Origin: a virus
IMG/VR virus record: IMGVR_UViG_3300045988_175656
Length of the DNA: 64,000 nucleotides
Reading direction: 5' to 3' (one strand)
The notes beneath the pieces are model-generated. The model was not told where the DNA came from. It saw only the letters and a list, made by a program, of their open reading frames with translations, and did no database searches. Position numbers and translations under genes: made by a program. Numbering within the stretch: the first letter of the stretch is position 1; each line of letters starts with the position of its first letter. Of the stretch, positions 1,562 to 41,821 are shown piece after piece.

Positions 1562-1577
1562 GTACTCAATTGAGTAC
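1562..1577 (-). promoter_or_regulatory. GTACTCAWWTGAGTAC hairpin/palindrome, copy a
   Basis: Perfect 16-nt palindrome GTACTCAATTGAGTAC, 16 nt upstream of the ATG at 1545. Confidence 0.6.
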
Positions 1578-1583
1578 AATATA

Positions 1584-1799
1584 TTACAAAATTTTATAAT
1601 AATACTCTTTACTAATAGATTTTAATGATACAAACCTATCAGCAAGTTCTTTTGTCTCAAACTCATAGTATTTAACATTTTCTTCATCTTCATTATACAG
1701 CATGAATGCAGTTCCATATTCAAAACTATCCACTTGTTCAAAAGTATAATGTGTTTTCTTAAACAAGAAAACATAAAACATTATTTCATTTGTAATCAT
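1584..1799 (-). CDS. hypothetical protein
   Basis: ORF track; minus array. Confidence 0.6.
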   Translation of the reverse strand: MITNEIMFYVFLFKKTHYTFEQVDSFEYGTAFMLYNEDEENVKYYEFETKELADRFVSLKSISKEYYYKIL

Positions 1800-2077
1800 T
1801 TCCGCATTCCTTTTAATATTTTTTGACTTATTAACAATCCTGTATCTTCTTCAATCTCCAATGTAGTAAGCATTATTCGATAATGTTTCTCCTTTTGATT
1901 TTTATAATCTTTTATCATCAATTCTCTTACCTCTTTAAAGTTTTCATCAAACAGTTTTTGAAGGGTTTTTAATCCCTTCAAACCTGCTGCTTGTTCTTTA
2001 TTTGTGTACAAGGTAATCCAATTGTTATCAGTTAATATCAAATAACAATAAACTTCTAATTGATAAAGTTGTTTCAT
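1796..2077 (-). CDS. hypothetical protein
   Basis: ORF track; 4-nt and 1-nt overlaps with neighbours suggest translational coupling. Confidence 0.65.
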   Translation of the reverse strand: MKQLYQLEVYCYLILTDNNWITLYTNKEQAAGLKGLKTLQKLFDENFKEVRELMIKDYKNQKEKHYRIMLTTLEIEEDTGLLISQKILKGMRK

Positions 2078-2262
2078 TAATTCAATTTTATTTTTAATAC
2101 ACGATTATCAACTTCTCGCATTGTATCAAGAAGTTTTACTCTCTGTTTAACGATTTTCATATTCCAAGAGAGTTTATTTTGAAGCCTGTTCCATGCACAT
2201 TCTTCACTATCCTCATGTAAAACATAGAGGGTATTATGATGCTTGAATATATAAGTGTTCAT
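2077..2262 (-). CDS. hypothetical protein
   Basis: ORF track; overlaps neighbours by 1-4 nt. Confidence 0.6.
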   Translation of the reverse strand: MNTYIFKHHNTLYVLHEDSEECAWNRLQNKLSWNMKIVKQRVKLLDTMREVDNRVLKIKLN

Positions 2263-2486
2263 TGTTTTACCTCAATTGACAAAAGGAAATCATTCTTTAA
2301 TGTTGGAATCAATACATTTTTGTGATATGGATTATAATCAAACCTAATAAAGTCATACAATTCTCTTATTGCATCTTTTTTATCAGAGCAACTAACATAC
2401 AAAATATTGTTTCTTTGATTGATTGAAAAATCTTTAGCACCTTGACACTTTAAGAAAAACGAAACTGTTTTAATTACTCTTTCCAT
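2259..2486 (-). CDS. hypothetical protein
   Basis: ORF track; the revcomp of ACAAAGATA is a TAnnTTTG box upstream, near 2512-2520. Confidence 0.6.
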   Translation of the reverse strand: MERVIKTVSFFLKCQGAKDFSINQRNNILYVSCSDKKDAIRELYDFIRFDYNPYHKNVLIPTLKNDFLLSIEVKQ

Positions 2487-2553
2487 AATACTATATGTTT
2501 TTAAATTTGATACAAAGATAATACATTAATTGAAATATAACAAAGTTTTTTAG

Positions 2554-3051
2554 TTAAAGTTCATTAATTTCTTTAATTTGAAACTTTTTAAAATCATCAA
2601 GTTTATACAAATACCAATAAGTAGGATTAGTATAATCACCCGACAAATTAGTAAAACTAATGATAAGATATGTTTCTCCTGCTTCCAATGATGGCATATC
2701 TTTCAGTGAAACATCATATTTTAGTTCCCCATTAATAATTGTTTCAAAAGGAAAATTGTGAAAAAAATCATAACCAAGAATTTTTACATATTCTTCAAGA
2801 GAAAATTCTGAATTATAAACAAATTTATAAGCCAAATAATGATGGTCAAATCCATCAACATATTTTTCAAACAAATAATCGTTCCCTCTCATGTTAACAA
2901 AGTTCATTTTATCAAACATTTGTTTTTTAACACGTTCTTTTTCCTTTTCTTCTTGAAGTTTTTCCTCATGTTTTATACACGCTTCTTCTGAATTGAAAAC
3001 TTTACCATCACAAGCCACAAAAGTAGCTACAATTGTATTTATCTTCTCCAT
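2554..3051 (-). CDS. hypothetical protein
   Basis: ORF track, 165 aa; minus array. Confidence 0.7.
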   Translation of the reverse strand: MEKINTIVATFVACDGKVFNSEEACIKHEEKLQEEKEKERVKKQMFDKMNFVNMRGNDYLFEKYVDGFDHHYLAYKFVYNSEFSLEEYVKILGYDFFHNFPFETIINGELKYDVSLKDMPSLEAGETYLIISFTNLSGDYTNPTYWYLYKLDDFKKFQIKEINEL

Positions 3052-3052
3052 A

Positions 3053-3619
3053 TTATTTTACATTATTTATTAATTGTTTAATATTTGGATTTGTTGAGAG
3101 CAATCCGATTTTTTCAAACATTTCATCATCATTTTCTGCCATGATGTTAGACAAATTTTCAACTACTTCACCGTTTTCTAAAATGGTTACATCAAAACTG
3201 CCAATGACAAACCAATTATTCATTAGTTTAATTTCATCTTTGATAACATTCTTTGCCTTATCAATAACAACTTGTTTCTTAGCTCTCTGTAACTCATGCC
3301 ATATAGTACGAACTGTTCTCTTGGAGCAGGTTACAATTCCTACACAAAACATATTTGTCACTAAATCAGACACATCAACAAGAAATGTTTTAGTTTTAAT
3401 ACAATAATGAAGATACATTACTATATTTTCTTGTTTATTAACAGATTTTACAGCTTCTTCCACATTTTGAAAATTATGTTTAAAACCAAAATCAGCAATT
3501 TTATTAAGCGTTTGGTCTATTACATAAACTTTTACAAGTCCTCTTTGAATTAAAGGATTTTCTATATTCTTATTTGGTTCAATATTCAATGTTAAATTTT
3601 TATATCTACTTACTATCAT
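3053..3619 (-). CDS. hypothetical protein
   Basis: ORF track, 188 aa; 1-nt gap to the next gene. The 3033..3407(+) ORF is an antisense shadow. Confidence 0.7.
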   Translation of the reverse strand: MIVSRYKNLTLNIEPNKNIENPLIQRGLVKVYVIDQTLNKIADFGFKHNFQNVEEAVKSVNKQENIVMYLHYCIKTKTFLVDVSDLVTNMFCVGIVTCSKRTVRTIWHELQRAKKQVVIDKAKNVIKDEIKLMNNWFVIGSFDVTILENGEVVENLSNIMAENDDEMFEKIGLLSTNPNIKQLINNVK

Positions 3620-3621
3620 AT

Positions 3622-3993
3622 TTATTCATTCTCTCCTTTCTTAAACAAACACCATTCGCAATTATCATCCATATCTACAAGGAAATTTCCTTGTCTTATC
3701 CATTTTGGCAACAATGATTTATGTTTCATTGCATCAATCAATCTGTTAATACATCTTACATCAGTATTATAAACTGCATCAGTAATCATTTTCTGATATT
3801 TCATAATAACAGATGTTGAATGTCTTTGTATTGTGTGTCCCATATACTCGCCACCATATTTAAGCATGGTTTCAAGTTCTGTTCTGTTAATATGGTCTTG
3901 TAAACATAAAACAATTACAGTAGTCCAATCAAAACTATTTGCTAAGTCATAAGCGATTTTTTTCTTTAATGTTTCAACTCTAATTTTATCCAT
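3622..3993 (-). CDS. hypothetical protein
   Basis: ORF track, 123 aa. Confidence 0.7.
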   Translation of the reverse strand: MDKIRVETLKKKIAYDLANSFDWTTVIVLCLQDHINRTELETMLKYGGEYMGHTIQRHSTSVIMKYQKMITDAVYNTDVRCINRLIDAMKHKSLLPKWIRQGNFLVDMDDNCEWCLFKKGENE

Positions 3994-4004
3994 AGTTTTT
4001 TTAA

Positions 4005-4169
4005 TTATATATTATTTTTATGTATATGAAACAATTCTTTATTAGGATATTTTATTGCAAAATTTACTTTAGCTTCTCCCTCACTAAAACCGTTTATATT
4101 AGTAACACCAATTATCTTTTTTCCGTTTTCTGTATAGCTGTAATAAGCTATCCATCTATCTCTTTTCAT
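4005..4169 (-). CDS. hypothetical protein
   Basis: The track start at 4196 lies inside or upstream of the -7 box (caaagata, 4194-4201). The next ATG (MKRDRWIAYY) is at 4169. Confidence 0.55.
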   Translation of the reverse strand: MKRDRWIAYYSYTENGKKIIGVTNINGFSEGEAKVNFAIKYPNKELFHIHKNNI

Positions 4170-4244
4170 ATTTGTTCTTTTATTATTATGATACAAAGAT
4201 AATATATTTATGAATACTAACCAAATTTTTTGTGTTAAAGAACT

Positions 4245-4583
4245 TTAAACAAATTCATGTTTTCTAATTTTCTTTGGAAGAAGTGATAATTTATGTGTTA
4301 ATTTACCTTTTGTTTCAAATACGTCTTTAATTGTTAATTTATGTAAAAAACTTGAATACACAGTATAAACCGCTTTATGAATTTCATTCCACTGTTTAGC
4401 GGATAAATCATCAAGTTTGGGATAAGTTATAATGTGAATATCATTATCCACTAAACAATAAGCCACACCATCAAATATAGTAAATTTTCTCCATGTTCCC
4501 AAATACCATCTATTTACCTTACATGAATTGCTTTTGTTAATAGTGTTAACAAAAGCTAAATAAAGTTCTTCTACATTAAACAT
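4245..4583 (-). CDS. hypothetical protein
   Basis: ORF track, 112 aa. Confidence 0.65.
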   Translation of the reverse strand: MFNVEELYLAFVNTINKSNSCKVNRWYLGTWRKFTIFDGVAYCLVDNDIHIITYPKLDDLSAKQWNEIHKAVYTVYSSFLHKLTIKDVFETKGKLTHKLSLLPKKIRKHEFV

Positions 4584-11932: not shown

Positions 11933-12790
11933 TTAAATTTGCTTTGAAATTTCCTTTACATAATCAATGTGTTCTTGGCTCATAATTTTGCCAGTAAAAT
12001 TTACCATCAAAAAAGTTTCAATTACATCTTCATCTGTTGCACTTTCCCCCAATGAAGCATAGGAGATTACATCACTATTTAAAAATTTATGTTGTGCTTT
12101 ATTAGAAAGGTCAGAATAGTAGTTACCATGTAAATCGGGGAATTTATCGTTAACAAAATCCAATAAAGCCCCAATTCTTTGTTTGCCATCCACAACATCA
12201 CGAAATGCAACCTCTTTGTTCCCTTTATTTAATTCAGATATAATATAGTTATACCCTCTATCACGTAAAACAATTTTACCACAATTAATTCCATTGTAGA
12301 TTGATTCAATCAACAATTGTTTATCTTTCAATTCCCACACAAAATCTCTTTGATAGTAATTTTTTTTACCATTTTTATCAATTACATAAGGATTAAAATT
12401 TAATTCATCAACATCTACTTCCCCTAATTTTGTTTGATATTTTCTTTCCCTTTTATCCCAACCACATCTATATAAAATAGAATCAAGTCCAAATTGAGAA
12501 GTGGTTAATTTTCCCCACCAAGATTTTTCGGGAAAAGGGTTTGCGCCTATATCATATACACTTTTTTTAATAATTTCAGATTTATCAATAGTAACAACTT
12601 CATTTCCATAATAAGAACTATCATCTAACATAAGTTTAATTTTATCTCCAACTACCTCTATAACTTTGCAAAGAACTTTTTTATCTTCACCATAAGTTCT
12701 GAAATGTTTAACAGATACATACACTTCATCATTAACTTGTAATGGTTTTTCATTAAATTCTTTCAACAATTTATCTTTTTTCGCTCCCAT
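11933..12790 (-). CDS. DUF262 (ParB/Srx-fold, GmrSD N-terminal-like) domain protein
   Basis: RDFVWELKDKQLLIESIYNGINCGKIVL ... VVDGKQRIGALLDF matches the DUF262 pattern (FVW..., LI.SI, DGxQR). Confidence 0.65.
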   Translation of the reverse strand: MGAKKDKLLKEFNEKPLQVNDEVYVSVKHFRTYGEDKKVLCKVIEVVGDKIKLMLDDSSYYGNEVVTIDKSEIIKKSVYDIGANPFPEKSWWGKLTTSQFGLDSILYRCGWDKRERKYQTKLGEVDVDELNFNPYVIDKNGKKNYYQRDFVWELKDKQLLIESIYNGINCGKIVLRDRGYNYIISELNKGNKEVAFRDVVDGKQRIGALLDFVNDKFPDLHGNYYSDLSNKAQHKFLNSDVISYASLGESATDEDVIETFLMVNFTGKIMSQEHIDYVKEISKQI

Positions 12791-18813: not shown

Positions 18814-19340
18814 GCTTTTTGATTTTTAGAAGTAATAGGAAGAAGTCTCATATTCCCCAACATACGACTCATATCTTCTTCCCAAATTTCAATTACAATA
18901 TGTTTATCTGTGAAAATTTTTCTATTTTCATCAAGTTGGAAAATCATTTTCACTTTGTAATTACTTGGATTATCAATTAAAGTAATTTCTTTACAAGAAA
19001 TAAAGTATTTTCTATCTTCAAGTGATACAAATATAGCCCTTTTTTCAATATCAGATAACAAAAAAGTAAAAGTCTGATTTTTAAAAGAAAATTCAATATA
19101 TGGCTCTACATCTAAATAAGTTTCAAACAATGAAACCAATTGATTCTTAGTGAAGTTCATTTTTAAGCGAGAAACCATTACTTCTCTACAAAATTCTCTA
19201 TTTTGTTGATAAAACTTATTCAGAAAAATACGCATTTCATCCCTAAGTTCATTTGAAAATGTTGTTAAATAAACATATTCCAATAAAGTTAAAGGAATTT
19301 CACCAAAATTTACCCGTTTTAAACATATATCATCCATCAT
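18810..19340 (-). CDS. hypothetical protein
   Basis: ORF track; 4-nt overlap with the downstream gene. Confidence 0.7.
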   Translation of the reverse strand: MMDDICLKRVNFGEIPLTLLEYVYLTTFSNELRDEMRIFLNKFYQQNREFCREVMVSRLKMNFTKNQLVSLFETYLDVEPYIEFSFKNQTFTFLLSDIEKRAIFVSLEDRKYFISCKEITLIDNPSNYKVKMIFQLDENRKIFTDKHIVIEIWEEDMSRMLGNMRLLPITSKNQKA

Positions 19341-19716
19341 TTTCCTTTTTTAATTCATTAAGATACAAAGTTAACAACTCTATTCTAAGCTCTCTTGTTG
19401 AAGTATCATAACTACTAAACCAAGCATCCCCATTAAATTGGAAATTATCTTCATAAAAAATGCTAAAGTTACTATATTCATCTATATGTTTAGGAACATA
19501 ACTGTTAGCAATATCTAACAAATCACTAAAATACTCTTTTAAAATATTATAAGAACTTGAATGATTAGAATCAATTTCAATTTTTTTTAATTTTTCAATT
19601 CCTTTAAACAAACCATAACAAATATAATTTGTTTCAAAAGTCATTAAAAAACCTCTTGCTAATTCGACTACTTTAATTACTTCGTCTTTATTTAATGTAA
19701 TGATTTTTCCTGCCAT
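19330..19716 (-). CDS. hypothetical protein
   Basis: ORF track. Confidence 0.7.
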   Translation of the reverse strand: MAGKIITLNKDEVIKVVELARGFLMTFETNYICYGLFKGIEKLKKIEIDSNHSSSYNILKEYFSDLLDIANSYVPKHIDEYSNFSIFYEDNFQFNGDAWFSSYDTSTRELRIELLTLYLNELKKENDG

Positions 19717-19737: not shown

Positions 19738-19986
19738 TTACTCATTTGAGTACATCTTTTTAGCTTCACTTAATCCTGCAATCAAGCCATCCAAATATAT
19801 GTTCATTTCTTTGGCAGTCATATCATAATAACCACTTGAACCCAATACTCTATGAAAACAAGAAGTCCATTCTTCAAGCAAAGCATATTTGCCACCACTA
19901 TATTTAACTACAAGGTCTTGATTACCTGTTAAAAGTTTTAATGATTCAACTTTTTCATCTATAATTTTTCTTGCTCGACTTGCCAT
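19738..19986 (-). CDS. hypothetical protein
   Basis: ORF track. The C-terminal codons MYSNE* are encoded by hairpin motif copy i. Confidence 0.65.
   Translation of the reverse strand: MASRARKIIDEKVESLKLLTGNQDLVVKYSGGKYALLEEWTSCFHRVLGSSGYYDMTAKEMNIYLDGLIAGLSEAKKMYSNE
19739..19754 (-). promoter_or_regulatory. GTACTCAWWTGAGTA(C) hairpin/palindrome, copy i
   Basis: Minus sense reads TGTACTCAAATGAGTAA. It spans the stop codon of 19738..19986, 22 nt before the next ATG. Confidence 0.55.
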
Positions 19987-21397: not shown

Positions 21398-21479
21398 ATT
21401 ATTTATACTAATTCTAAATTAACTAATTATGTTTAAAAACAGCTTAAAATATTTGCAAATTAAATAAAAAACAGTATTA

Positions 21480-21554
21480 ATATAATGGTCCTTATAATAG
21501 TTAATATTATATAATATTAATATAAATTATATAATATATTAAGGACCATTATAT
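21480..21554. repeat. 15-bp inverted repeat enclosing a 20-nt perfect AT palindrome
   Basis: Arms are ATATAATGGTCCTTA (21480-21494) and TAAGGACCATTATAT (21540-21554). The 45-nt A/T-only spacer contains TTAATATTATATAATATTAA (21501-21520). Confidence 0.8.
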
Positions 21555-21580
21555 ATACTTTTTTCTGAATTATACAAATT

Positions 21581-21946
21581 TTAGATGTTAAAAATATAAA
21601 ATCTCAAACCGTTCATATCAATAATGTAATCAGCATCATCTTCTGTTAAATCATCACATTCATCCAATTCATCTTGATACATTGAACTAACATTAACTGT
21701 TATACCCAAATATTCAAAACTAATTTCATATTCTCCAACAACTGAAAAACTTTCCAATATTTCAGATAAATGTTTTTCATTGTTCATTGGATTACTCAAC
21801 ATAAATGCAGCAATAGTAAGTACAGACCGTTCATCCAAAAGGTTATCATCATCTGTCAGTTCTCCATTGAAATAATTGATTATATCATTTTCAATCTTTT
21901 CATACAGTTTTGTACTAATGAATATTTCTTTACAATTTTTTTTCAT
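21581..21946 (-). CDS. hypothetical acidic protein
   Basis: Start trimmed to MKKNCKEIF (ATG 21946), which follows AAGAAAGGAGAAAATGAA. The track N-terminus MYSNE... is encoded by hairpin motif copy b. Confidence 0.65.
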   Translation of the reverse strand: MKKNCKEIFISTKLYEKIENDIINYFNGELTDDDNLLDERSVLTIAAFMLSNPMNNEKHLSEILESFSVVGEYEISFEYLGITVNVSSMYQDELDECDDLTEDDADYIIDMNGLRFYIFNI

Positions 21947-21964
21947 TTCATTTTCTCCTTTCTT

Positions 21965-21980
21965 GTACTCATTTGAGTAC
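21965..21980 (-). promoter_or_regulatory. GTACTCAWWTGAGTAC hairpin/palindrome, copy b
   Basis: Minus sense reads GTACTCAAATGAGTAC, 18 nt upstream of the ATG at 21946. Confidence 0.6.
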
Positions 21981-21992
21981 ATTTATAATGTT

Positions 21993-22391
21993 TTAAAAAT
22001 ATTTAGTTTTGTGTCTTAATTCTTCAATGTAAGAATCAATTTCTTCTTCAATGATAATTACTGCACGTTTTTCAGCCACAAGTTTTAACTGATACCTGTT
22101 TTGAACAATGTAAGAACTTGCATCACAGTAAGGATAATCTTTCAATTCGTTTCTGTCATCAGTTAAATCAAAAACTACATACGCATTTATAAACAGTACA
22201 AAATTATTTTCCAAAATATCAGCAAATATTTCGTTTTTAAAAGCTATGGAATAAACAAGACCAAAGTCTTTTACCTTTTCATTAAATTCTTTTCTTGTTT
22301 TGAAACGCATAACTTTTGCGAAATCACCATAAATAAACTTTTGTAAATTAATAGCCAAAGCTACTTTTTCTTCAAGTTCCAACATAAGCAT
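21993..22391 (-). CDS. hypothetical protein
   Basis: ORF track. Confidence 0.65.
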   Translation of the reverse strand: MLMLELEEKVALAINLQKFIYGDFAKVMRFKTRKEFNEKVKDFGLVYSIAFKNEIFADILENNFVLFINAYVVFDLTDDRNELKDYPYCDASSYIVQNRYQLKLVAEKRAVIIIEEEIDSYIEELRHKTKYF

Positions 22392-26104: not shown

Positions 26105-26509
26105 TTACCATGAATAAGTTGAACAAGGTGCATTAATATCATGTTTAATTTCTATAATATCAATTACAACTTTCTTATCAAACATTAAAGAAATTTCTTT
26201 TGTTAATTTGTCAATATCACTACCACCTCTTCCAATTAAAATCCCTGGTCTTTTTGTAAAGATTTTTATATCAATAATATCTTTTTGCGTATCAACATTT
26301 ATACCATGTATTTGTAATATGTTGGCTGTATTATATACTTTCTCAATGCAAAGATACACAGTTTTTAATGGGCTATATATAGCAAGTGTTTTGCTTTTAC
26401 TTCCATCCATGAAATACTCGTTTTCAATCTTAAATGACAAAGTATTCATTTCATTTTTAATGAATAATTGTTTAATCTTTTTTTCAATGAATTTTTTAAA
26501 ATCTTTCAT
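26105..26509 (-). CDS. KH-domain RNA-binding protein (ribosomal protein uS3 KH-like)
   Basis: IDIKIFTKRPGILIGRGGSDIDKLTKEISLMFDKKVVIDIIEIK carries the GxxG core (IGRGG). It resembles the type-II KH segment of uS3 (rPGivIGkgG..i..L). Start trimmed to MKDFKKF (ATG 26509), because the track extension overlaps micro-ORF 26526..26675. Confidence 0.55.
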   Translation of the reverse strand: MKDFKKFIEKKIKQLFIKNEMNTLSFKIENEYFMDGSKSKTLAIYSPLKTVYLCIEKVYNTANILQIHGINVDTQKDIIDIKIFTKRPGILIGRGGSDIDKLTKEISLMFDKKVVIDIIEIKHDINAPCSTYSW

Positions 26510-26525
26510 AGTGAAATATTTTTTG

Positions 26526-26675
26526 TTAATTAAATATAAAATCATACGCTTTCTGTACACTGTCAAAACTAATATGTAAACAGTCATTTCCGATTGAAAT
26601 GCCTAAATCTGACTTGTGTATAGATATATTATAACCTTGTTGCATGATAGCAACTATCATAGTAAAATCATCCAT
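26526..26675 (-). CDS. 49-aa micro-protein (tandem paralog 2)
   Basis: Unlisted ORF MDDFTMIVAIMQQGYNISIHKSDLGISIGNDCLHISFDSVQKAYDFIFN. It shares the (F)D(S/N)V(Q/E)KAY(D/K)F tail with 26677..26835. Confidence 0.4.
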   Translation of the reverse strand: MDDFTMIVAIMQQGYNISIHKSDLGISIGNDCLHISFDSVQKAYDFIFN

Positions 26676-28771: not shown

Positions 28772-28881
28772 AACTGTTTATTTATTGATTAATATTTCCT
28801 TTTTCTTATGATACAAAGATAAGAAATAATATTTAGCTTACCAAATGTTTTGTGTTAATAAAATATAAACACATTAATATA

Positions 28882-28966
28882 AAAAATGGTGTTAACTATC
28901 TTCACAGACTGTTAACACCCGATATGTTTAATTTAAAATCCAATTTTGTATCGTATATTCATTATT
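28882..28966 (-). ncRNA. candidate orphan sRNA (promoter to terminator, no ORF)
   Basis: Minus sense has a promoter TTTG-20nt-TATCTTTG (-7 box at 28973-28980). About 50 nt follow with only a 9-codon ORF. Then comes a 9-bp hairpin GGTGTTAAC/GTTAACACC (28888-28919) plus a T6 run. Confidence 0.4.
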
Positions 28967-29009
28967 ACACTACAAAGATAATACTTTTATTTTAATCCAC
29001 CAAATTATT

Positions 29010-29327
29010 TTAGTTAATTATTTCTAATCTATATGCTTTCCCCTTATTATGTTTTTCTTCAATATCAATACCATACGGAAAACAAACAAAAAGCATTTTG
29101 TAATTTGGATATATCATTGTAAACTCTTTTTTTTCAAAGTCATACCAACCCCAATATTCTTGCTCATTTCTATTAGGTGGAGATTGATTTTCAGAAATAC
29201 ACATCTTTACTTCCAATACATCTTCTGCCTTATTTCCCCATATATGCGCATGGTCTTTGTGAATACCAAAGTGAGTGTAATAATCTCCATAGTCACATTT
29301 GACACAAGTTTCAATAAATGTTTCCAT
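29010..29327 (-). CDS. hypothetical protein
   Basis: ORF track; 29049..29339(+) is a shadow. Confidence 0.65.
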   Translation of the reverse strand: METFIETCVKCDYGDYYTHFGIHKDHAHIWGNKAEDVLEVKMCISENQSPPNRNEQEYWGWYDFEKKEFTMIYPNYKMLFVCFPYGIDIEEKHNKGKAYRLEIIN

Positions 29328-29328
29328 A

Positions 29329-29526
29329 CTAAAATATGAATAGTTTAATACGAATTTTTAATACATTCCAATAGTATTGAAAACGGTTATCACAATATAT
29401 GTAAATTTCATCATTGTTTGGATGTTTCTCTCTGTTAAGATATATGGTTATTTCGTAATCTTCATTATCGAAATATACATCTATAATATCATGTTTGAAA
29501 ATACCACGCTTGCCAATCTTAATCAT
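29329..29526 (-). CDS. hypothetical protein
   Basis: ORF track. Confidence 0.55.
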   Translation of the reverse strand: MIKIGKRGIFKHDIIDVYFDNEDYEITIYLNREKHPNNDEIYIYCDNRFQYYWNVLKIRIKLFIF

Positions 29527-29573
29527 ATTGTTTAATTTTTTATTAATACAAAGATATAAAATAAATTCAAATC

Positions 29574-30011
29574 CTACAAATTTTCTCGCTCTTTTTTCAA
29601 ATCTTCAAGATTTTTTAACATATTTTTATATTCTTCTTTATCAAAGAAATCGGGGCTATATGAAGCAAAAGTATTTTCCAAATCTTTTATTTCTTCATTA
29701 AGTGATTCATCAGTAATACTCAATTTAACACCCTCATAACATTCTTTAAATGCTTCAATAATGACATTTCTAATTTCAACAGTTTTATATTCTTCAAAGT
29801 TTAATTCCTTTAATAAAAAATCAAAAGTAAAAGTACAAATTACTTTGTTCCCCTCATAATCCATAATAGTAATATCAGTGTAATCAACAGTACTACTATA
29901 TTGTAAAATTTTATATTTATAGTAGTAAAAACTATTGTTAAGAGATGAATCACTCTTTGTTATCTTATTAATCAATCTTTTAAGTGCCCGATATTTCTTA
30001 TTCTGTTTCAT
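29574..30011 (-). CDS. hypothetical protein
   Basis: ORF track. Confidence 0.65.
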   Translation of the reverse strand: MKQNKKYRALKRLINKITKSDSSLNNSFYYYKYKILQYSSTVDYTDITIMDYEGNKVICTFTFDFLLKELNFEEYKTVEIRNVIIEAFKECYEGVKLSITDESLNEEIKDLENTFASYSPDFFDKEEYKNMLKNLEDLKKERENL

Positions 30012-30090
30012 AACTTATATATGTTTTTAATTACTGATACAAAGATATGGATTAATATTCATATACACAAATTATTTGTATTAAAAAGTA

Positions 30091-30465
30091 TTAATAGAAA
30101 AATTTTTCAAGGTCTTTAACTCTAATCATAAAAATTGTATCTTCATCACTACCAATATAACCAATAAGAGTTTTCATTAAAATTTCTTCATCATCAAAAA
30201 TGTTTCCAATAATAAGACCATTATTTGAAAAGTTCTTAGTAGCATAATTTAACAAAACGTCATTATAAGAAACATCTGTTAAAATATTATAATTATCTAA
30301 ACCTTTTTTAATGGAAACATAAAGCAATCTGTTAAAATTGTTAGACATTACAAAATTACCTCTGAAAATATAATCTAACTTCTTTATGTTAGAACATAAT
30401 TCTTTTAAAGAAATGATTACATAACCATCTAATTTAAAGTGTTCTTTTACTTCATCTATATTCAT
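30091..30465 (-). CDS. hypothetical protein
   Basis: ORF track. Confidence 0.65.
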   Translation of the reverse strand: MNIDEVKEHFKLDGYVIISLKELCSNIKKLDYIFRGNFVMSNNFNRLLYVSIKKGLDNYNILTDVSYNDVLLNYATKNFSNNGLIIGNIFDDEEILMKTLIGYIGSDEDTIFMIRVKDLEKFFY

Positions 30466-30606: not shown

Positions 30607-30846
30607 TTAAAAATCATCTACAATTTCTGCACTAAGACATCCAATCATTATTTCATCATTGTAAGTGGTGAATTGTTTTACAAATTTAATTACATGAATA
30701 TTATCAAAATAATCATTAATGTATTCCACCTTATCAATATCATTTGTTAATGACATTAACATATTATATGCAAATGATGATAATGTGAAATGACAAAGAC
30801 CACTATCCAATGTGATAATTTCTATACAATATATCTTTTTATCCAT
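30607..30846 (-). CDS. hypothetical protein
   Basis: ORF track. Confidence 0.6.
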   Translation of the reverse strand: MDKKIYCIEIITLDSGLCHFTLSSFAYNMLMSLTNDIDKVEYINDYFDNIHVIKFVKQFTTYNDEIMIGCLSAEIVDDF

Positions 30847-31174
30847 GTGATTGAAAATTATTTGCTTTAAGTAAAGGGAAAATTACTTGTCTGTAAATTG
30901 CATTGTAAATCTTTATTTGATAATCAAAGCTATAATCATTGATATAACGCATAATACCACTTTCTGTACTAAGAGAAACCTCGCAATCAAAAATGTTATA
31001 TTCTACTTTATATTCACGACCATTTAAAATAATATAACAACCAATCACCTCTATTTCACCACAACAATAGTTACGAAATACTGTGTTACTACCTTTCACT
31101 ATTTTAACACTCTCCCATGAATTACTAATAAACTCTAAAAGAGTACCTATCAAATGATTATAATCTATACGCAT
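30839..31174 (-). CDS. hypothetical protein
   Basis: ORF track. Confidence 0.65.
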   Translation of the reverse strand: MRIDYNHLIGTLLEFISNSWESVKIVKGSNTVFRNYCCGEIEVIGCYIILNGREYKVEYNIFDCEVSLSTESGIMRYINDYSFDYQIKIYNAIYRQVIFPLLKANNFQSHG

Positions 31175-31212
31175 GATATTATTTAATTTTTATATGTATT
31201 AAAAATATGTAA

Positions 31213-31227
31213 TACTCATTTGAGTAC
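31213..31227 (-). promoter_or_regulatory. GTACTCAWWTGAGTA hairpin/palindrome, copy c
   Basis: Minus sense reads GTACTCAAATGAGTA. It starts 3 nt after the TGA of 31231..31680 and lies 41 nt before the ATG at 31174. Confidence 0.55.
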
Positions 31228-31230: not shown

Positions 31231-31680
31231 TCAAAACTTAATATGCTTCACCTCATATCTCTTTTGAAAATCCTTACATTCAGATATTACATCTTTGAAA
31301 ATATCCATTAATTCAGATAATTCAGTATTGTAATCATACCAAGAATATATATTCAAATCCTCCGTCTTACTTCTTCCCTTAAAACGCATAACACCACTTA
31401 ATTTCATCTTAAATGAATAAGAAATGTTATTGTCCTTATCTATATTCTTTGAAAGAAAAATATGCAGACCACTACAAATACATTGCCAATCCCGATAAAC
31501 AAGGAAAAATGGAACGTAAGACAACATATAGCCTAATGTAGAAGTAACCTTTTCACCCTTATGTGTATTATAACTCTTATAAGGATAAAGATAGATACTA
31601 TCAAAAACCTCTTTGATTAAAGACATTTCTTTATCAGTAAAATCAACTGTGCCAACTGCTATAAAATCACCATTTCTCAT
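31231..31680 (-). CDS. hypothetical protein
   Basis: ORF track. Confidence 0.65.
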   Translation of the reverse strand: MRNGDFIAVGTVDFTDKEMSLIKEVFDSIYLYPYKSYNTHKGEKVTSTLGYMLSYVPFFLVYRDWQCICSGLHIFLSKNIDKDNNISYSFKMKLSGVMRFKGRSKTEDLNIYSWYDYNTELSELMDIFKDVISECKDFQKRYEVKHIKF

Positions 31681-31789
31681 AACTTGTTATTTTTAATTCA
31701 TTATTATATACTATTAGTTTATTATCACAATGCAAAGATAACACATTTCAATATACAAACCAAATAATTTGAGTTAATTAATATTAATA

Positions 31790-31804
31790 TACTCATTTGA
31801 GTAC
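31790..31804 (-). promoter_or_regulatory. GTACTCAWWTGAGTA hairpin/palindrome, copy d
   Basis: Minus sense reads GTACTCAAATGAGTA, just after the stop of 31819..32232 and just upstream of a standard promoter. Confidence 0.55.
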
Positions 31805-31818: not shown

Positions 31819-32232
31819 TTATATATCACATATTTGTATCTCTGTCTCAAATAACCTTAAACGTTCAGACGTTAAAAGAAGTAAATCTTTAATATCGTTC
31901 GTTTGAGAAGAATAACTAATCTTAATATTACTATTAATAAACTCAATTACATAATAATAATAAAAATCGTTAATATCTAATCTGTTTACCCTCTTTGATA
32001 AACGAACAATCATATCATTAAAAAACATCTCAACATTATTAGTAAAATGCACAGGAATTTTAAAATGATATAAAAATTCTAAATCGTTATTAATATAACG
32101 AACATAAGGCTTCATATCCCTAAACTTTATATGTTTAAGAATATCCTTAATACAAGAAACATAACAATCATTAAATTTCTCTAATTCATCACAAATTGGG
32201 GCAGAATTGAAATCATAACAAACATAAACCAT
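31819..32232 (-). CDS. hypothetical protein
   Basis: ORF track. Confidence 0.65.
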   Translation of the reverse strand: MVYVCYDFNSAPICDELEKFNDCYVSCIKDILKHIKFRDMKPYVRYINNDLEFLYHFKIPVHFTNNVEMFFNDMIVRLSKRVNRLDINDFYYYYVIEFINSNIKISYSSQTNDIKDLLLLTSERLRLFETEIQICDI

Positions 32233-32290
32233 ATATTTTAAATTAATAAATAAACTACTCTGCTAATAATAAGCAAATATACAAATTTAT

Positions 32291-32306
32291 GTACTCATTT
32301 GAGTAC
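32291..32306 (-). promoter_or_regulatory. GTACTCAWWTGAGTAC hairpin/palindrome, copy e
   Basis: Minus sense reads GTACTCAAATGAGTAC. It is directly followed by overlapping TAAATTTG and TATATTTG -7 boxes, so it occupies the -33 position. Confidence 0.6.
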
Positions 32307-32314: not shown

Positions 32315-32920
32315 TTAAATAATGCTATATCTAAACACACAACCATAATTTAAACCATTTTCAATATTATTAAAATCATTTAAGAATTGCTTCTTTATAT
32401 CCTCACCATTAGTAATAGGATAAACCAATTCACCAAATGTTTTAATAAATTTATTGAATATTTCACATATATTAATATAAGATTGAGTTATGTTTTCTCT
32501 ATACCTTAATGTAGGTATAACCCTATAACCGCAATCTTTACCATTTTCGTAAACTTTATTTACAATGTAAGTGTAATGTTCAAACGTACCATAATACATA
32601 CGATAAGGAATATTTACTTTCGTTTCAAGATGAAAATGTAACTCCACATAATCACAAGGAGTTGTAAATACACCTTTTTCATACATAGACGTTATACCCT
32701 CATAAGTAATAAGGTCAGAACCTTTTACTCCCTCAAAACTATTATCACAATGCCATAAGTGATAAACATCCCTTACATTATCATAAATCATAAGTTCATT
32801 AAACAAATTGCTATCTGCTTTAATTCCACAACCATTAACATTATAATACACAACTTTACCTCTGTTAACAAAGTCCTTGAACTCATTAACAGTATTTAAC
32901 TTTTTTAAATTCATATACAA
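32315..32920 (-). CDS. hypothetical protein (V.NG family, long form)
   Basis: N-terminal TVNEFKDFVNRGKVVYY. Confidence 0.7.
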   Translation of the reverse strand: MYMNLKKLNTVNEFKDFVNRGKVVYYNVNGCGIKADSNLFNELMIYDNVRDVYHLWHCDNSFEGVKGSDLITYEGITSMYEKGVFTTPCDYVELHFHLETKVNIPYRMYYGTFEHYTYIVNKVYENGKDCGYRVIPTLRYRENITQSYINICEIFNKFIKTFGELVYPITNGEDIKKQFLNDFNNIENGLNYGCVFRYSII

Positions 32921-34140: not shown

Positions 34141-34185
34141 AGTACAAAGATAGGGAAATTTTCGTTCCCTACCAAATTATTTTAG

Positions 34186-34407: not shown

Positions 34408-34503
34408 AATTTATTTAATTTTTAATTGTTAGTATTCTTATTTTGATATATACAAAGGTAGGTATTTTCCCGATACCTACCAAATATTTTGAGTTAATAA
34501 AAG

Positions 34504-37394: not shown

Positions 37395-37471
37395 ATTTTT
37401 AATTGTTATTTCTTATGATACAAAGGTAGGGAAATTTCTATTCCCTACCAAATATTTTATGTTAATAAGAA

Positions 37472-38191
37472 TTAATATTCTTCACTTGCTTTCATAATTC
37501 CTTCAAGAAGTGATATTTCCTTAATATCAAAAAGATAGTATTCGTCCTGTGTATCATACGAATAATCACAATTATTACATATTTGTCCTTTTGCGTTAAG
37601 ATAAATCATTGTATCAACATTAATATAATCTTCAAGTTCTTCAATACTAATTTCTTTGGTGTAGTCTAATGTTTTCCAACCGCCTAATTCATATCCTCTG
37701 CCCTCTGAAATGATATTACGCACATTATATTCATCATTTCTAAGTGAGAAGAAAGAAAGCATGGAAAGAAATTGAATACTTTCTTTTTGTTCTTTTGGGT
37801 ATGTGTGGTAACTATCATTTGATAATTGTATCATTGATAAACATTCATCTTTATAATTTTGATACATATACATTTCAATCAATAAATGTATAAATTCTAA
37901 TGATTGGCAAGATTTTCTACCATTAACAACTATGTAAAAATTACTTACAGATATTTTTAATCTCTTCAATTCCTCTAATATAAAACGTATTGCAGGAATA
38001 TTTAGAGTAGGTTCACCACCTGTAATTGTAAGGCTACCAATTGAACTAATATCTTGTAATGCTTTTGTAATATATGCTTTATGTATATTTCTTTTTTGTG
38101 CTTCACCTCTTAAACAATGCGCACATTTCATATTACATTTGCGTGTTACTTCAATTGCCAATTCATTTAAAATTAATTTCTTCTTTTCCAT
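37472..38191 (-). CDS. radical SAM enzyme (short, possible C-terminal twitch/SPASM-like remnant)
   Basis: CNMKCAHC (CxxxCxxC) at residues 19-26, within IEVTRKCNMKCAHCLRG. Also has the LTITGGEPTL SAM-binding motif and a C-terminal NAKGQICNNC. Confidence 0.8.
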   Translation of the reverse strand: MEKKKLILNELAIEVTRKCNMKCAHCLRGEAQKRNIHKAYITKALQDISSIGSLTITGGEPTLNIPAIRFILEELKRLKISVSNFYIVVNGRKSCQSLEFIHLLIEMYMYQNYKDECLSMIQLSNDSYHTYPKEQKESIQFLSMLSFFSLRNDEYNVRNIISEGRGYELGGWKTLDYTKEISIEELEDYINVDTMIYLNAKGQICNNCDYSYDTQDEYYLFDIKEISLLEGIMKASEEY

Positions 38192-39083: not shown

Positions 39084-39126
39084 CTTATAAAAATAGGGCT
39101 ATCTATTCATCACGAACTGATAACCC
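39084..39126 (-). terminator. intrinsic terminator after 39159..39881
   Basis: Minus sense reads GGGUUAUC-N15-GAUAGCCC (39126-39096), followed by UAUUUUUAU. Confidence 0.55.
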
Positions 39127-39158
39127 TTTCTAACAATTAAAAATATTAGTTATGAAAA

Positions 39159-39881
39159 CTAAATTATATTTTCCGTTAAGAATTTTTCCCCTTTTAAGTG
39201 TCTTATGTGCCCCTCATTATAAGTCATTGGTTTGGGATTAATAAAACAACTTTCAAAAGTAAATCTCGTATGTTTTCTATTATCTTGATTTTTATCAATG
39301 TTTTGTGTTTTAATGAATGAAGAGAAATACTGTTGAGTTAAATCATTTATTTTTACATCACCATTAAATTCCATATCAACATTACCATTTTGTGTAATAT
39401 ATTGTGGCATTCCGTTTGGTGCTTTTACCAATACACTATCTTGATTATACTTCTTACATAGATTAATTGCAAGATTTTTTAAAGCGTTAAAATCCTTTTC
39501 ATTTCCATTTCTATCGAAATTTAACACAATGTAAGAAGTTTCATATACTTGTTTTTCATTTTCAGTTCCTTTGTTTTCAATAAAACCACCAAAAACAGGT
39601 ACAAATGAAAATCCAGAATTTTTAATATCATTTAATAATTGTTTAGATAATTTATTATTGGTTTGATTATCATTTTCTCCACGAGAAGCTGATATGATTA
39701 TAAAACCGTTATTATAATGTTTACCTAACAATCTATCAACCGTCATTTCATTTAAAGGCTGTAAAGGAAATGTATTGGTATCACCTACTTCCATATATTC
39801 TTTGATAAGATTATATTGTTTAGCTAAATTAGTATTACATAACTTATCAAATTGTTCATTTATATTTTTTAAAATAGTCAT
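39159..39881 (-). CDS. hypothetical protein
   Basis: ORF track, 240 aa. Confidence 0.7.
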   Translation of the reverse strand: MTILKNINEQFDKLCNTNLAKQYNLIKEYMEVGDTNTFPLQPLNEMTVDRLLGKHYNNGFIIISASRGENDNQTNNKLSKQLLNDIKNSGFSFVPVFGGFIENKGTENEKQVYETSYIVLNFDRNGNEKDFNALKNLAINLCKKYNQDSVLVKAPNGMPQYITQNGNVDMEFNGDVKINDLTQQYFSSFIKTQNIDKNQDNRKHTRFTFESCFINPKPMTYNEGHIRHLKGEKFLTENII

Positions 39882-39910
39882 AATTTATCTAATTTTATTA
39901 TATAAATAGT

Positions 39911-39994
39911 AGCTCTGATGGGAGTCGAACCCACACGTCTATAAAGACCTCAGTGTTTGAGACTGATGCGTACTACCAATTTCGCCACAGAGCC
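39911..39994 (-). tRNA. tRNA-Leu (anticodon CAA), type II with long variable arm
   Basis: The minus sense folds as a cloverleaf: GGCTCTG-TG-GCG-AAATTGGTAGTA-CGC-A-TCAGT-CTCAAAC-ACTGA-GGTCTTTATAGACGT-GTGGG-TTCGACT-CCCAT-CAGAGCT. The anticodon CAA is at 39959-39957. The T-loop is TTCGACT. There is a 15-nt variable arm and no encoded CCA. Confidence 0.85.
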
Positions 39995-40000
39995 ATTTTA

Positions 40001-40086
40001 AATAAGGGAAGAAGCGATGATTGTATTTGCTGATTATCAATCGGATTAGACATTAAAAGTTATTAAAATGCTTATCTTCCCTTATT
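40001..40086 (-). repeat. 12-bp inverted repeat enclosing 62 nt, 6 nt upstream of the tRNA
   Basis: Arms are AATAAGGGAAGA (40001-40012) and TCTTCCCTTATT (40075-40086). There is no ORF. It is co-oriented with, and presumably co-transcribed with, the tRNA. Confidence 0.6.
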
Positions 40087-40096
40087 ATATTTTAGA

Positions 40097-40111
40097 TACT
40101 CAATTGAGTAC
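40097..40111 (-). promoter_or_regulatory. GTACTCAWWTGAGTA hairpin/palindrome, copy f
   Basis: Minus sense reads GTACTCAATTGAGTA, beginning 1 nt after the TAA of 40113..40562. Confidence 0.55.
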
Positions 40112-40112
40112 T

Positions 40113-40562
40113 TTAAATCTTTTTATGCTCATTATACTTGTTAAGTATCTGTTTTGCACGTGAAGTTGTGAAACCTTTTTCATTGTATGTTTCAGCCATA
40201 ATAGCCACACACTGATTAAAGATACTTTCAACATTGGCAGCACAAACATTTACTTTCGGTGTGGAAAGCTGTTCTTTCAACTTTTGAATTTCAAGTTTAA
40301 GCTCTTTATTTTCAAGAGACAATTCCTTGTTTTTCTTTGCCAAAAGTTGTGCATTTTCTCCGTCTGCAATGTGCGACAAGATGTTCATAATACTTTCTTT
40401 CTGTTGGATAAGACGCTTGTTAATTTCGTCTTTATTCCAAATGTTACACATTGGAAGTTTGATAACAAGGTTATCATTGTACTTAACATCTACACTGTTT
40501 CCGTTCTTTTCAACTGTAAAGAATGCGAAACTTGTCTGAAATGGAAATTTTTCTGTTGCCAT
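40113..40562 (-). CDS. hypothetical coiled-coil protein
   Basis: ORF track; LENKELKLEIQKLKEQL heptads. The plus ORFs 40284..40769 and 40327..40539 are shadows. Confidence 0.65.
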   Translation of the reverse strand: MATEKFPFQTSFAFFTVEKNGNSVDVKYNDNLVIKLPMCNIWNKDEINKRLIQQKESIMNILSHIADGENAQLLAKKNKELSLENKELKLEIQKLKEQLSTPKVNVCAANVESIFNQCVAIMAETYNEKGFTTSRAKQILNKYNEHKKI

Positions 40563-40600
40563 AATCTAATACTTTTAAAATTGTTTTTAATATATTACCT

Positions 40601-40615
40601 AACTCATTTGAGTAC
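40601..40615 (-). promoter_or_regulatory. GTACTCAWWTGAGT hairpin, copy g (inside a 5' UTR)
   Basis: Minus sense reads GTACTCAAATGAGTT. It lies between the TACCTTTG promoter (about 40640) and the ATG at 40562, so it is transcribed. Confidence 0.55.
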
Positions 40616-40672
40616 GTCTATCTCTTATTTTGATATTACAAAGGTAAGAACTTTCTCTGACATATCCAAATT

Positions 40673-40909
40673 TTATTTGTTAATTTTTTCCCAAAGTTCG
40701 TTAAAGGAATTAAACTTTATCATTTGTCCGTCTTTTTCAAAAGCAAGTGCAGTTTCTTTTCTTTCTTGATAGGTATCTCCATACCCTTGAAACGCATCCA
40801 CACATATAGAACAATTGTTATCAATTGTTAAAATGGCTCGTCCTTGTTTACCAATTGATTTCAAACCTTTTCCTTTTACGCCCTCATGTTCTATTAATAA
40901 ATTTGCCAT
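40673..40909 (-). CDS. hypothetical protein
   Basis: ORF track. Confidence 0.6.
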   Translation of the reverse strand: MANLLIEHEGVKGKGLKSIGKQGRAILTIDNNCSICVDAFQGYGDTYQERKETALAFEKDGQMIKFNSFNELWEKINK

Positions 40910-40918
40910 GATACAGTA

Positions 40919-41095
40919 TTATTTAGATGAAACATCAATTAAGAATGTACCTTTACTAATTGTAGTCGTATTGGTAATGCGGAAATTTCTTTTTTCGCAA
41001 TAGTCCTCTACTTCTTCATAAGAAGAAAAACGCTTACCATTTACAATGTACTTTTCTCTCTGTTTTGAACTTTTCATTTTCTCAAAATTTTTCAT
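40919..41095 (-). CDS. 58-aa hypothetical protein
   Basis: Unlisted ORF MKNFEKMKSSKQREKYIVNGKRFSSYEEVEDYCEKRNFRITNTTTISKGTFLIDVSSK. It has the AACAATTAAAGATTATATGATATG-type leader and a promoter upstream. Confidence 0.45.
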   Translation of the reverse strand: MKNFEKMKSSKQREKYIVNGKRFSSYEEVEDYCEKRNFRITNTTTISKGTFLIDVSSK

Positions 41096-41167
41096 ATCAT
41101 ATAATCTTTAATTGTTTAATGCAAAGGTAAGCATTTAAAACTTACCTTGCAAATTTTCAGTGATTAT

Positions 41168-41821
41168 TTAACTTTTTAATGCTTGCTTTAACAGATATTT
41201 GTTAATGTAAGGAAATGTTTTGTTTAATTCCATTTCTTCCATAAAAAGTTTTAAAATATCATAATAAGTTTCATATTGTTTTGCGGCTTCTTTACAAGTG
41301 TCATTTATACCGTTAATAGCGTTTGTTGTGTACACATTTGAGTACATGATAACGCTTTTTACCTTGTTAAAGTTTTCTTCATCAAAATAATACACATCTT
41401 TTTCATTTGTTTGGTGTTTCACCTCAATAAATGAAATATCAAAACATGACATCAATTCAGTTAAAAAATAGCCACATCTTTCAAGTTTGATAGTACGCTT
41501 TTTACTATCAATTTTTTCAATGATGTTATAAAATCTATTTACCATATAAATTTCGGGATTGCAGATAGCAAATAACATCACATCAGGTATATTAATAACT
41601 TTTAACAAAGGCAAAGTCCTTTTCCATGTTGGTTCATTGTACATATAATTTACCACAGGGTGTATTTTTCTTAATTCAGATTGAAAACGGTTGTTAAACT
41701 CTTCATCTAAATTAATAGAATAGCCTAAACTTTTTGCATAGGCTTCAATACATTCTTTATCCATTATCATTTTGTTTGATAACTCTGATAAACTATTAAT
41801 TACTTCTTCTCGATTTTTCAT
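41168..41821 (-). CDS. hypothetical protein
   Basis: ORF track, 217 aa. It contains a near-copy of the hairpin motif (41339-41354, GTACTCAAATGTGTAC in sense) that encodes MYSNV. Confidence 0.7.
   Translation of the reverse strand: MKNREEVINSLSELSNKMIMDKECIEAYAKSLGYSINLDEEFNNRFQSELRKIHPVVNYMYNEPTWKRTLPLLKVINIPDVMLFAICNPEIYMVNRFYNIIEKIDSKKRTIKLERCGYFLTELMSCFDISFIEVKHQTNEKDVYYFDEENFNKVKSVIMYSNVYTTNAINGINDTCKEAAKQYETYYDILKLFMEEMELNKTFPYINKYLLKQALKS

Follow-up and report, generated by a model that had tools for sequence, protein, structure and literature searches.

The early promoters of coliphage N4 are hairpins, with a stem of 5–7 bp, a loop of 3 nucleotides (nt) and conserved bases, and they are read by a virion-packaged single-subunit RNA polymerase that starts transcription ~11 nt from the loop. 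The signature of one-strand hairpin recognition, as by this virion polymerase, is a palindromic site whose centre has an orientation. Promoter-early stem-loop (PeSL) cassettes combine a host sigma-70 early promoter with a stem-loop. They were reportedly described in T4-type phages by Arbiol et al. in Genome Biol Evol in 2010. Here we analyse a short palindrome that recurs between small genes in a 64,000-nt stretch of viral DNA (IMG/VR record IMGVR_UViG_3300045988_175656), the whole of which we refer to as the window. The window probably comes from a ~380-kb human-gut jumbo phage of the 'Jug' clade, since human-gut scaffolds of 375–393 kb encode an identical copy of one of its proteins (on record in 1857 assembly-collection blocks), and from a phage with a Bacteroidetes-type host, since nearly every gene gap carries the sequence TTTG-N~20-TAnnTTTG, the Bacteroidetes −33/−7 promoter (hereafter, host-type promoter).

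The element, (A)TG-TACTCAAATGAGTA-(C/T), is a real, sharply conserved palindromic signal of 15–18 bases located between small genes. We tentatively read it as a phage-specific promoter or initiation signal recognised on DNA, an explanation that we hold to be slightly less than evenly likely. To our knowledge, nothing is known about the transcription programme of Jug-type phages. Papers on Jug phages contain no promoter or motif analysis, and searching the literature for both strands of the motif brought up no relevant report. Compact phage-specific regulatory signals are a known kind of element; this one is new and widespread.

The motif resembles N4 early promoters in being a short inverted repeat with conserved stem letters and strict directionality, present as a few co-oriented copies in one region of small early-type genes; in N4, the reader is a phage enzyme and not a host sigma factor, as we propose for the motif. 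As with N4-type promoters, the copies are upstream and co-oriented (77 vs 4 sites among related phages), and are found in one region (a single arm, 40–50 kb). However, stem and loop measure 6 bp and 4 nt in the motif, as against 5–7 bp and 3 nt in N4, the Jug clade is reported to carry a multisubunit-type RpoC whereas the N4 reader is single-subunit, and the region of this phage is also full of host-type promoters, with hairpin extrusion and transcription start being predictions only. PeSL cassettes are similar as short regulatory repeats between small open reading frames (ORFs) of a hyperplastic region, and copies of our motif also form single-gene cassette junctions, with gene loss or gain seen at one junction in a human-gut contig (L210) and at a synteny break next to another copy (site 4 below). 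In contrast to PeSLs, the GTACTCAAATGAGTA motif comes without TTTG/TAnnTTTG or any other host promoter, and the PeSL description fits instead the TTTG-hairpin-TAnnTTTG promoters of this phage.

The compact promoters read by phage-encoded polymerases (T7, T3 and SP6 class; early and late motifs of phiKZ and AR9) share with the motif an all-or-none conservation over ~17 bp, directionality, intergenic location, an occasional position directly after terminators, and retention across relatives whatever the type of host promoter. Unlike the motif, they are non-palindromic, show no sequence similarity to it, and are spread over whole temporal gene classes, while the motif is limited to 40–50 kb. Operators of phage repressors and activators, of the Cro/CI type or of the MotA-box style that replaces a −35 element, have the dyad symmetry, and one copy (site 6) does sit at a −33 position, but the motif is strongly oriented, most of its copies are at no fixed distance from a core promoter, and they are spread over 40 kb rather than clustered at one control region.

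A repeated palindrome between small minus-strand genes

The window has a guanine-cytosine (GC) content of 25% and carries ~100 small minus-strand genes up to ~42 kb, followed by a plus-strand arm, with a switch in GC skew at the junction of the two arms. Nine motif sites were identified, eight of them intergenic and one a degenerate copy within a gene, all on the minus arm and in a single orientation. They are given below with coordinates on the plus strand and with the motif in mRNA (minus-strand) sense, together with two features that they adjoin.

Site 1: 1562–1577, minus strand, reads GTACTCAATTGAGTAC; starts 6 nt after the stop of gene 1584–1799 and ends 18 nt before the ATG of gene 1318–1545, in a gap without a host-type promoter
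Site 2: 19738–19753, minus strand, reads GTACTCAAATGAGTAA; overlaps the final codons and stop of gene 19738–19986 (product ending in MYSNE) and ends 21 nt before the ATG of gene 19330–19716, in the middle of a run of genes without another promoter
Site 3: 21965–21980, minus strand, reads GTACTCAAATGAGTAC; starts 12 nt after the stop of gene 21993–22391 and ends 12 nt before the ATG at 21952, with AAGGAG in the spacer
Site 4: 31212–31227, minus strand, reads GTACTCAAATGAGTAT; starts 3 nt after the stop of gene 31231–31680 and lies ~40 nt before the ATG of gene 30839–31174, without a host-type promoter
Site 5: 31789–31804, minus strand, reads GTACTCAAATGAGTAT; starts 14 nt after the stop of gene 31819–32232 and is followed by a complete host-type promoter (−7 box TATCTTTG at 31733–31740)
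Site 6: 32291–32306, minus strand, reads GTACTCAAATGAGTAC; has a 9-bp extended stem, starts 8 nt after the stop of gene 32315–32920 and is directly followed by the −7 boxes TAAATTTG and TATATTTG (32274–32289)
tRNA-Leu(CAA): 39909–39994, minus strand, downstream of site 7
Site 7: 40096–40111, minus strand, reads GTACTCAATTGAGTAT; starts 1 nt after the stop of gene 40113–40562 and lies 101 nt upstream of tRNA-Leu(CAA), without a host-type promoter in between
Gene for a 149-amino-acid protein: 40113–40562, minus strand, with the motif on both sides
Site 8: 40600–40615, minus strand, reads GTACTCAAATGAGTTA; ends ~37–39 nt before the ATG of gene 40113–40562
Site 9: 41330–41345, minus strand, degenerate GTACTCAAATGtGTAC inside gene 41168–41821, with a broken stem; probably a decayed or chance copy

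The full 16-mer GTACTCAWWTGAGTAC has three exact matches in the window (0.00 expected from shuffled sequences), and allowing up to two mismatches in the arms yields the nine sites (0.48 ± 0.63 expected). The repetition that a first-pass annotation of the same DNA had pointed out is therefore non-random, with nine copies against 0–0.5 expected in shuffles. An exact 12-nt core, ACTCAWWTGAGT, is common to all eight intergenic copies, and the ninth differs from it by one mismatch. The mRNA-sense consensus within the window is GTACTCA(A/T)ATGAGT(A)(C/T/A), with the 5' G present in 9/9 copies and its palindromic partner, the 3' C, in only 4/9. Because relaxing the search to three mismatches adds no copy, either in the window or in the 10 kb past its right end, the motif is all-or-none, with no intermediates at 2–3 mismatches. 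Eight of the nine sites lie inside or straddle intergenic DNA, which makes up 17% of the window.

The first-pass annotation had located eight of the copies to within 1 nt, and had placed the in-gene copy 9 nt too far to the right (41339–41354 instead of 41330–41345). Its description of the surroundings agrees with our measurements in most respects: a stop codon lies 1–14 nt before the copies at 31212, 31789 and 40096, the motif overlaps the stop codon at 19738, and the copy at 32291 occupies the −33 region of a promoter, the −7 box TATATTTG starting 10 nt past the motif, which stands in place of a −33 element. The copies that it assigned to leaders (1562, 21965 and 40600) are indeed upstream of an ATG, at a measured spacing of 12–39 nt rather than 16–40 nt. 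The host-type −7 box TACCTTTG (40639–40646) is 24 nt upstream of site 8, which is therefore probably in the 5' untranslated region (UTR) of that promoter.

Conservation, orientation and relation to host-type promoters

An exact scan of IMG/VR for the 15-mer returned many multi-copy contigs of 211–380 kb, and the 17-mer ATGTACTCAAATGAGTA was found in 36 stretches, nearly all from such contigs. The relatives that bear the motif range from near-identical to the window to phages sharing few genes with it. A position weight matrix built from 94 non-redundant instances reads A-3 T-2 G-1 TACTCAAATGAGTA Y+14, with an upstream flank (A-3 T-2 G-1) that is more conserved than the degenerate downstream flank, and with no other conserved position from −30 to +57. 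Variation is limited to the four central bases (AAAT, AATT, AAAA, AAAC or GAAT), the stem letters being invariant; at site 2, for example, the relative L008 has a TCA to TCG change that gives a GAAT centre and is synonymous in the overlapping ORF. What is conserved across distant phages is the sequence of the motif, not its structure.

The identical motif occurs in phage contigs of 25–50% GC, among them phage-like contigs of 42–50% GC binned with a metagenome-assembled genome (MAG) of Paludibacteraceae from yak rumen, and a 367-kb phage (10049_9; IMGVR_UViG_3300010049_000009, loci L027 and L115) in which Bacteroidetes −7 boxes are found in only 2/33 gaps. Such breadth, over GC contents of 25–50% and over promoter types, argues for a conserved phage-encoded reader. 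A site belonging to a host (Bacteroidetes) regulon was considered and rejected, as the multi-copy contigs in a scan of genomes in the Genome Taxonomy Database (GTDB) were all phage-like contigs within MAGs, while bacterial genomes gave only single matches, by chance or at one orthologous locus. The motif belongs to phages, and the simplest candidate for its reader is a protein that these phages conserve. The orthologous locus is found in ~25 Flavobacterium genomes (L130, L139, L143 and ~22 other loci), each of which contains the 17-mer once, inside a gene and in the conserved context ..TTAATGTACTCAAATGAGTAAATGCTGC..; this occurrence is unrelated to the phage motif and is a caution for searches based on pattern only.

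In the window, all seven asymmetric centres are co-oriented with the genes. Across non-redundant sites of the family, 77 are co-oriented, 4 opposite and 13 ambiguous (binomial p = 1e-18), and the question raised by the first-pass annotation, whether the AAAT centre follows transcription, is thus answered positively well beyond the window. This bias is not a search artefact, because the retrieval pattern was searched on both strands, and a mild A-richness of the sense strand cannot yield a 77:4 ratio.

The motif substitutes for host-type promoters in its gene gaps. Among window gaps of at least 40 nt, a −7 box was present in 53/62 ordinary gaps, compared with 2/7 motif gaps in which the box was sought downstream of the motif (Fisher p = 0.003), and the same difference was seen family-wide (25/67 motif gaps vs 222/348 other gaps, p = 7e-5). 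At sites 1–3 there is no room for another promoter, because only 12–21 nt separate the motif from the start codon. In Bacteroidetes-type relatives, 28/60 non-redundant sites are without a nearby −7 box, and the gene at 29574–30011, which has a host-type promoter in the window, is preceded by the motif alone in three other phages.

A further group of copies, 7/73 in the non-redundant family set, starts 0–8 nt after a same-strand intrinsic terminator (a GC hairpin followed by a T-run), and five of these seven have an additional promoter-like element between the motif and the gene. The intervening element is GCATCGGAT-N14-TATATTA in 10049_9, where the motif is 1–5 nt upstream of it, and a host-type −33/−7 pair in another phage, 28805_41. 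These copies are probably little transcribed from either side, and their position as a spacer between a terminator and the next promoter points to a role at the DNA level. In 10049_9, the motif reads ATACTCAAATGAGTA and is often preceded by an intrinsic terminator; four copies are followed by GCATCGGA(T/A), a spacer of ~13–14 nt and TATATT(A/T), beginning 1–5 nt past the motif, and a fifth by ATCGGAAT-N13-TATATTA ~15 nt after it. These sequences make up a second conserved promoter-like element, one peculiar to 10049_9.

Promoter, operator, RNA hairpin or recombination site

On the reading that we tentatively favour, the motif would be a promoter, or an obligatory promoter-proximal recognition site, read in one orientation by a product of the jumbo phages' own genes, which would be an RNA polymerase or a specificity factor. 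Selected genes of the small-gene arm and a tRNA would in this way be expressed by a further route that bypasses the host sigma-A type TTTG/TAnnTTTG promoters serving nearly all genes around them. We infer the position of the transcription start (at or just after the motif), the phage origin of the reader and which protein it is. A promoter accounts for the sharpness of the motif, its direction, its asymmetric flank and the conservation of its sequence across hosts and GC contents, as well as for the substitution of host promoters, the short distances to start codons, the position after terminators and the presence of a tRNA among the downstream genes. A phage polymerase probably exists, because the human-gut scaffolds of 375–393 kb fit the Jug clade of jumbo gut phages (360–402 kb, 27–30% GC, predicted hosts Bacteroides or Phocaeicola), for which an RpoC-like polymerase subunit has been reported and used as a marker (PMC12880540).

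Several observations weigh against a promoter. The link to RpoC comes, for this phage, from the paper on the Jug clade, and a Pfam search of all 143 window ORFs detected no RNA polymerase or sigma domain; a back-translated NADFDGD pattern for the RNA polymerase beta' subunit gave, among the matches listed, giant-virus contigs and a gut contig (L246) from a different type of phage. Confinement to the minus arm, already pointed out in the first-pass annotation, is complete, with no copies in the plus arm at 42–64 kb, in the tail-fibre region or in the next 10 kb, and in each related genome the copies fall within one segment of 40–50 kb; a promoter reading leaves this confinement unexplained, and the restricted segment means that the motif is not a general middle or late promoter. 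A promoter also needs no palindrome, so that a plain promoter does not explain the shape. In 26/60 sites (~43%) a −7 box follows 40–90 nt downstream, with a peak at 50–69 nt, the motif abutting the upstream edge of a full promoter, and in 6/60 (~10%) a −7 box lies at most 50 nt upstream, placing the motif in a 5' UTR (one of these sites also has a box within 90 nt downstream). Such positions are also compatible with an upstream regulator site or with a 3'-end element that precedes a promoter. In over half of the sites, the motif begins at most 15 nt past an upstream stop codon or tRNA end, and two of them are 5–8 nt after a tRNA gene. Finally, orthologues that lack the motif had no recognisable promoter in 17 cases and a host-type promoter in 5, counts that are noisy because of crude gene calls. 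Two further measures were discarded as discriminators: distances to stop and start codons, since compact gaps shorten both and host-type promoters also abut stops, and the ends of gene arrays as a promoter/terminator test, as the apparent convergent and divergent cases dissolved on inspection.

The palindrome may reflect recognition of a hairpin in single-stranded DNA, or binding by a dimeric recruiter. In the first case, and by analogy with N4, the motif would form a hairpin promoter on one DNA strand, with AT-rich supercoiled DNA extruding the hairpin for a polymerase that the jumbo phage brings or makes, a version that we regard as quite improbable.

The first-pass annotation had proposed either the operator of a dimeric regulator or an RNA hairpin; the conserved regulatory palindrome at the heart of both ideas stands, while both mechanisms fit less well than a promoter. 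The operator of a phage-encoded dimeric regulator, which would activate or repress adjacent promoters or act as a roadblock to read-through, seems unlikely to us. The dyad symmetry over 14–16 bp and the variable 4-bp centre are typical of half-site recognition, the copies between terminators and promoters are in line with action on DNA, and the 26 sites located 40–90 nt upstream of a −7 box, the overlap of site 6 with a −33 position, and the placement of the motif 1–5 nt upstream of GCATCGGAT-N14-TATATTA in 10049_9 would all suit a regulator. On the other hand, an orientation of 77 vs 4 and asymmetric flanks would not be expected if a dimer bound symmetrically, around half of the sites have no recognisable promoter that could be regulated, core-promoter overlap is seen at site 6 only, and Pfam detected no helix-turn-helix or other regulator domain in the window ORFs. 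The gene for the 149-amino-acid coiled-coil protein, flanked by the motif and the most widely shared motif neighbour in related phages, could indicate autoregulation, but the protein has no structural match to DNA-binding folds. As a candidate cognate regulator it was rejected, with close homologues as its only sequence matches and nothing below E = 0.8 in a Foldseek search against the PDB; its AlphaFold model (mean confidence, pLDDT, 70) consists of a beta-sheet and long helices. Pfam and PHROGs searches gave no informative matches for the genes adjoining the sites.

Read as RNA, the motif would form the hairpin GUACUC-AAAU-GAGUAC and, bound by a phage protein or nuclease, could serve as a processing site, a 3'-end stabiliser, a sequence-specific terminator for a phage polymerase or a translational operator, a role that we also judge to be unlikely. 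Its co-orientation with transcripts is as expected for such an element, the loop is the variable part, and most copies lie within 15 nt past an upstream stop, or 5–8 nt after the 3' end of a tRNA. Site 2, in the end of a coding sequence, and site 8, in a 5' UTR, are both certainly transcribed, and the arm encodes a KH-domain protein (26105–26587) and an RNase H-like protein. Pairing of G-1 with position +14, which is C or U and gives G-C or G-U in 72/93 cases, also favours an RNA, yet none of the flanking pairs from −1/+14 to −6/+19 is paired above shuffles (p = 0.07–0.86). The core hairpin is weak (−2.6 to −6.1 kcal/mol), with the stem down to 4–5 pairs in two copies (−2.6 and −4.2 kcal/mol), and has no U-tract. 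Stem pairs never vary across very divergent phages, so that there are no compensatory changes, the invariance itself being uninformative on pairing. A search of Rfam matched only the tRNA and no family for the motif. With no stem change, no covariation in the flanks and no Rfam match, the compensatory substitutions that define a structured RNA element were not observed. An intrinsic terminator was rejected, in view of only two G/C per 6-base arm, the low stability and the lack of a consistent T-run; because the phage's own terminators are ordinary GC hairpins, the motif is not a terminator for the host polymerase. The seven copies just after a strong terminator, five of them followed by a later promoter-like element, likewise speak against a function in RNA.

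Copies of the motif are also places where genes come and go, which would suit a mobility or recombination site, such as a REP/RAYT or IS200/IS605-like hairpin, a homing-endonuclease or nicking site, or an attC-like boundary. The human-gut contig L210 lacks exactly the 137-amino-acid gene at 31819–32232, and at its junction stands a single motif copy, with the flank found upstream of site 6 on one side and that found downstream of site 5 on the other. Synteny with relatives is lost precisely at the 3' edge of site 4, the very point at which different genes are inserted in L047, L048 and L036. Relatives often have HNH, TnpB and other mobile genes close to the motif, and the single-strand hairpin signature and strand specificity fit this explanation too. 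Nevertheless, we consider it very improbable. In L207 (4040–4160 compared with window 28772–30105), three genes (window 29010–30011) are lost with the same precision, and the junction lies inside the 13-nt identity TATCTTTGTATCA, common to the −7 boxes of two host-type promoters; recombination between short repeats is thus sufficient, and a dedicated system need not be invoked. A second motif copy is missing from the insertions at site 4, Pfam detected neither a Y1 transposase nor an integrase or RAYT among the 143 window ORFs, and 40 large ORFs of related loci gave no Y1_Tnp match, only TnpB/OrfB_IS605. That the motif keeps to gene gaps and retains its sequence across distant phages speaks for a role in expression. 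In cassette loss the motif thus behaves like a regulatory repeat, as host-type −7 boxes do, and short regulatory repeats in general serve as gene-cassette junctions here. A parS-type centromere was considered in view of copies near the strand switch at ~42 kb, and rejected: such centromeres, which have a ParB partner, are orientation-independent and often intragenic, while the motif keeps strictly to one orientation and to intergenic DNA.

Jug-type jumbo phages of Bacteroides and Phocaeicola are reported to account for ~1% of human-gut metagenome reads, and the motif offers a concrete handle on the transcription programme of uncultivated jumbo phages with GC contents of 25–50%. As a promoter, it would predict where phage-controlled transcripts begin and single out those genes, a tRNA among them, whose expression does not depend on host promoters. 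It could be used as bait for the factor that reads it, and could become an orthogonal control element in Bacteroides. It also illustrates, base by base, how short regulatory repeats drive the gain and loss of single genes. If the hairpin-promoter version were true, Bacteroides jumbo phages would run a host-independent programme beside dozens of host-type promoters, making one of the most abundant phage clades of the human gut the first example beyond N4-like podoviruses.

Host-type promoters and other features of the window

A megablast of 12 kb of the window against cultured phages returned no near match. On the gut scaffolds that encode the identical window protein, its gene has neighbours that resemble tail-fibre genes and encode a BACON domain. 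In the gene gaps of the window, enrichment is highest for the words TATCTTTG, TACCTTTG and related octamers, and host-type promoters, too, can begin right after stop codons. Their spacer often contains a GC hairpin, GGTAGGG..CCCTACC (for example at 37425–37449, 34457–34481 and 34149–34173), the 3' arm of which forms the −7 box together with the following TTTG, so that a terminator-like hairpin and the next promoter are fused. These fused hairpin-promoters resemble the promoter-early stem-loops of T4-type phages.

In the small-gene arm, recognisable proteins are encoded at 39159–39881, 37472–38191, 26105–26587 and 11933–12790, and include a SAM-lyase-family protein, a radical-SAM protein and a GmrSD_N/DUF262-type protein. 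A KH_2-domain protein with a GRGG motif is also encoded there, the KH_2 assignment being confirmed by precomputed Pfam annotation in L207. Counter-defence and RNA-binding functions are likely for these proteins.

Some short palindromes are missing from the window, in what looks like strong avoidance of restriction sites: GATC (0 vs 115.6 expected), GGCC (0 vs 24.5), CCGG (0 vs 16.2) and CGCG (0 vs 10.9) are absent, and CTAG is found 3 times against 70.5 expected, with GTAC and TTAA at expectation. Avoidance of GTAC, the RsaI site, was considered in connection with the motif and dismissed (116 observed vs 122 expected).

A different repeat, present in twelve copies, consists of a host-type −7 box, ~12 variable nt, AAAGGTAnnAGTAAtAttnTAaAGTATAGTCTCC(AA/GT), and GTTAA ~25 nt later.

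Minus-strand copies of the unit: 34089, 35869, 36932, 38334, 42071, 42983, 49059, 50712 and 52211
Plus-strand copies of the unit: 44031, 46320 and 48176

Each of them lies in a long gap that also has a second promoter for the next gene, and no Rfam family matches the unit, which looks like a family of short promoter-proximal transcripts or leaders. Between 33242 and 34185, 944 nt are free of any ORF of at least 45 amino acids; the AGTATAGTCTCCAA unit occurs once there, together with several promoter-like boxes. Downstream of gene 21581–21952, an AT-rich inverted repeat at 21398–21580 (taatggtcctta ... taaggaccatta, arms of ~30 nt) is possibly a strong terminator or another structured element.

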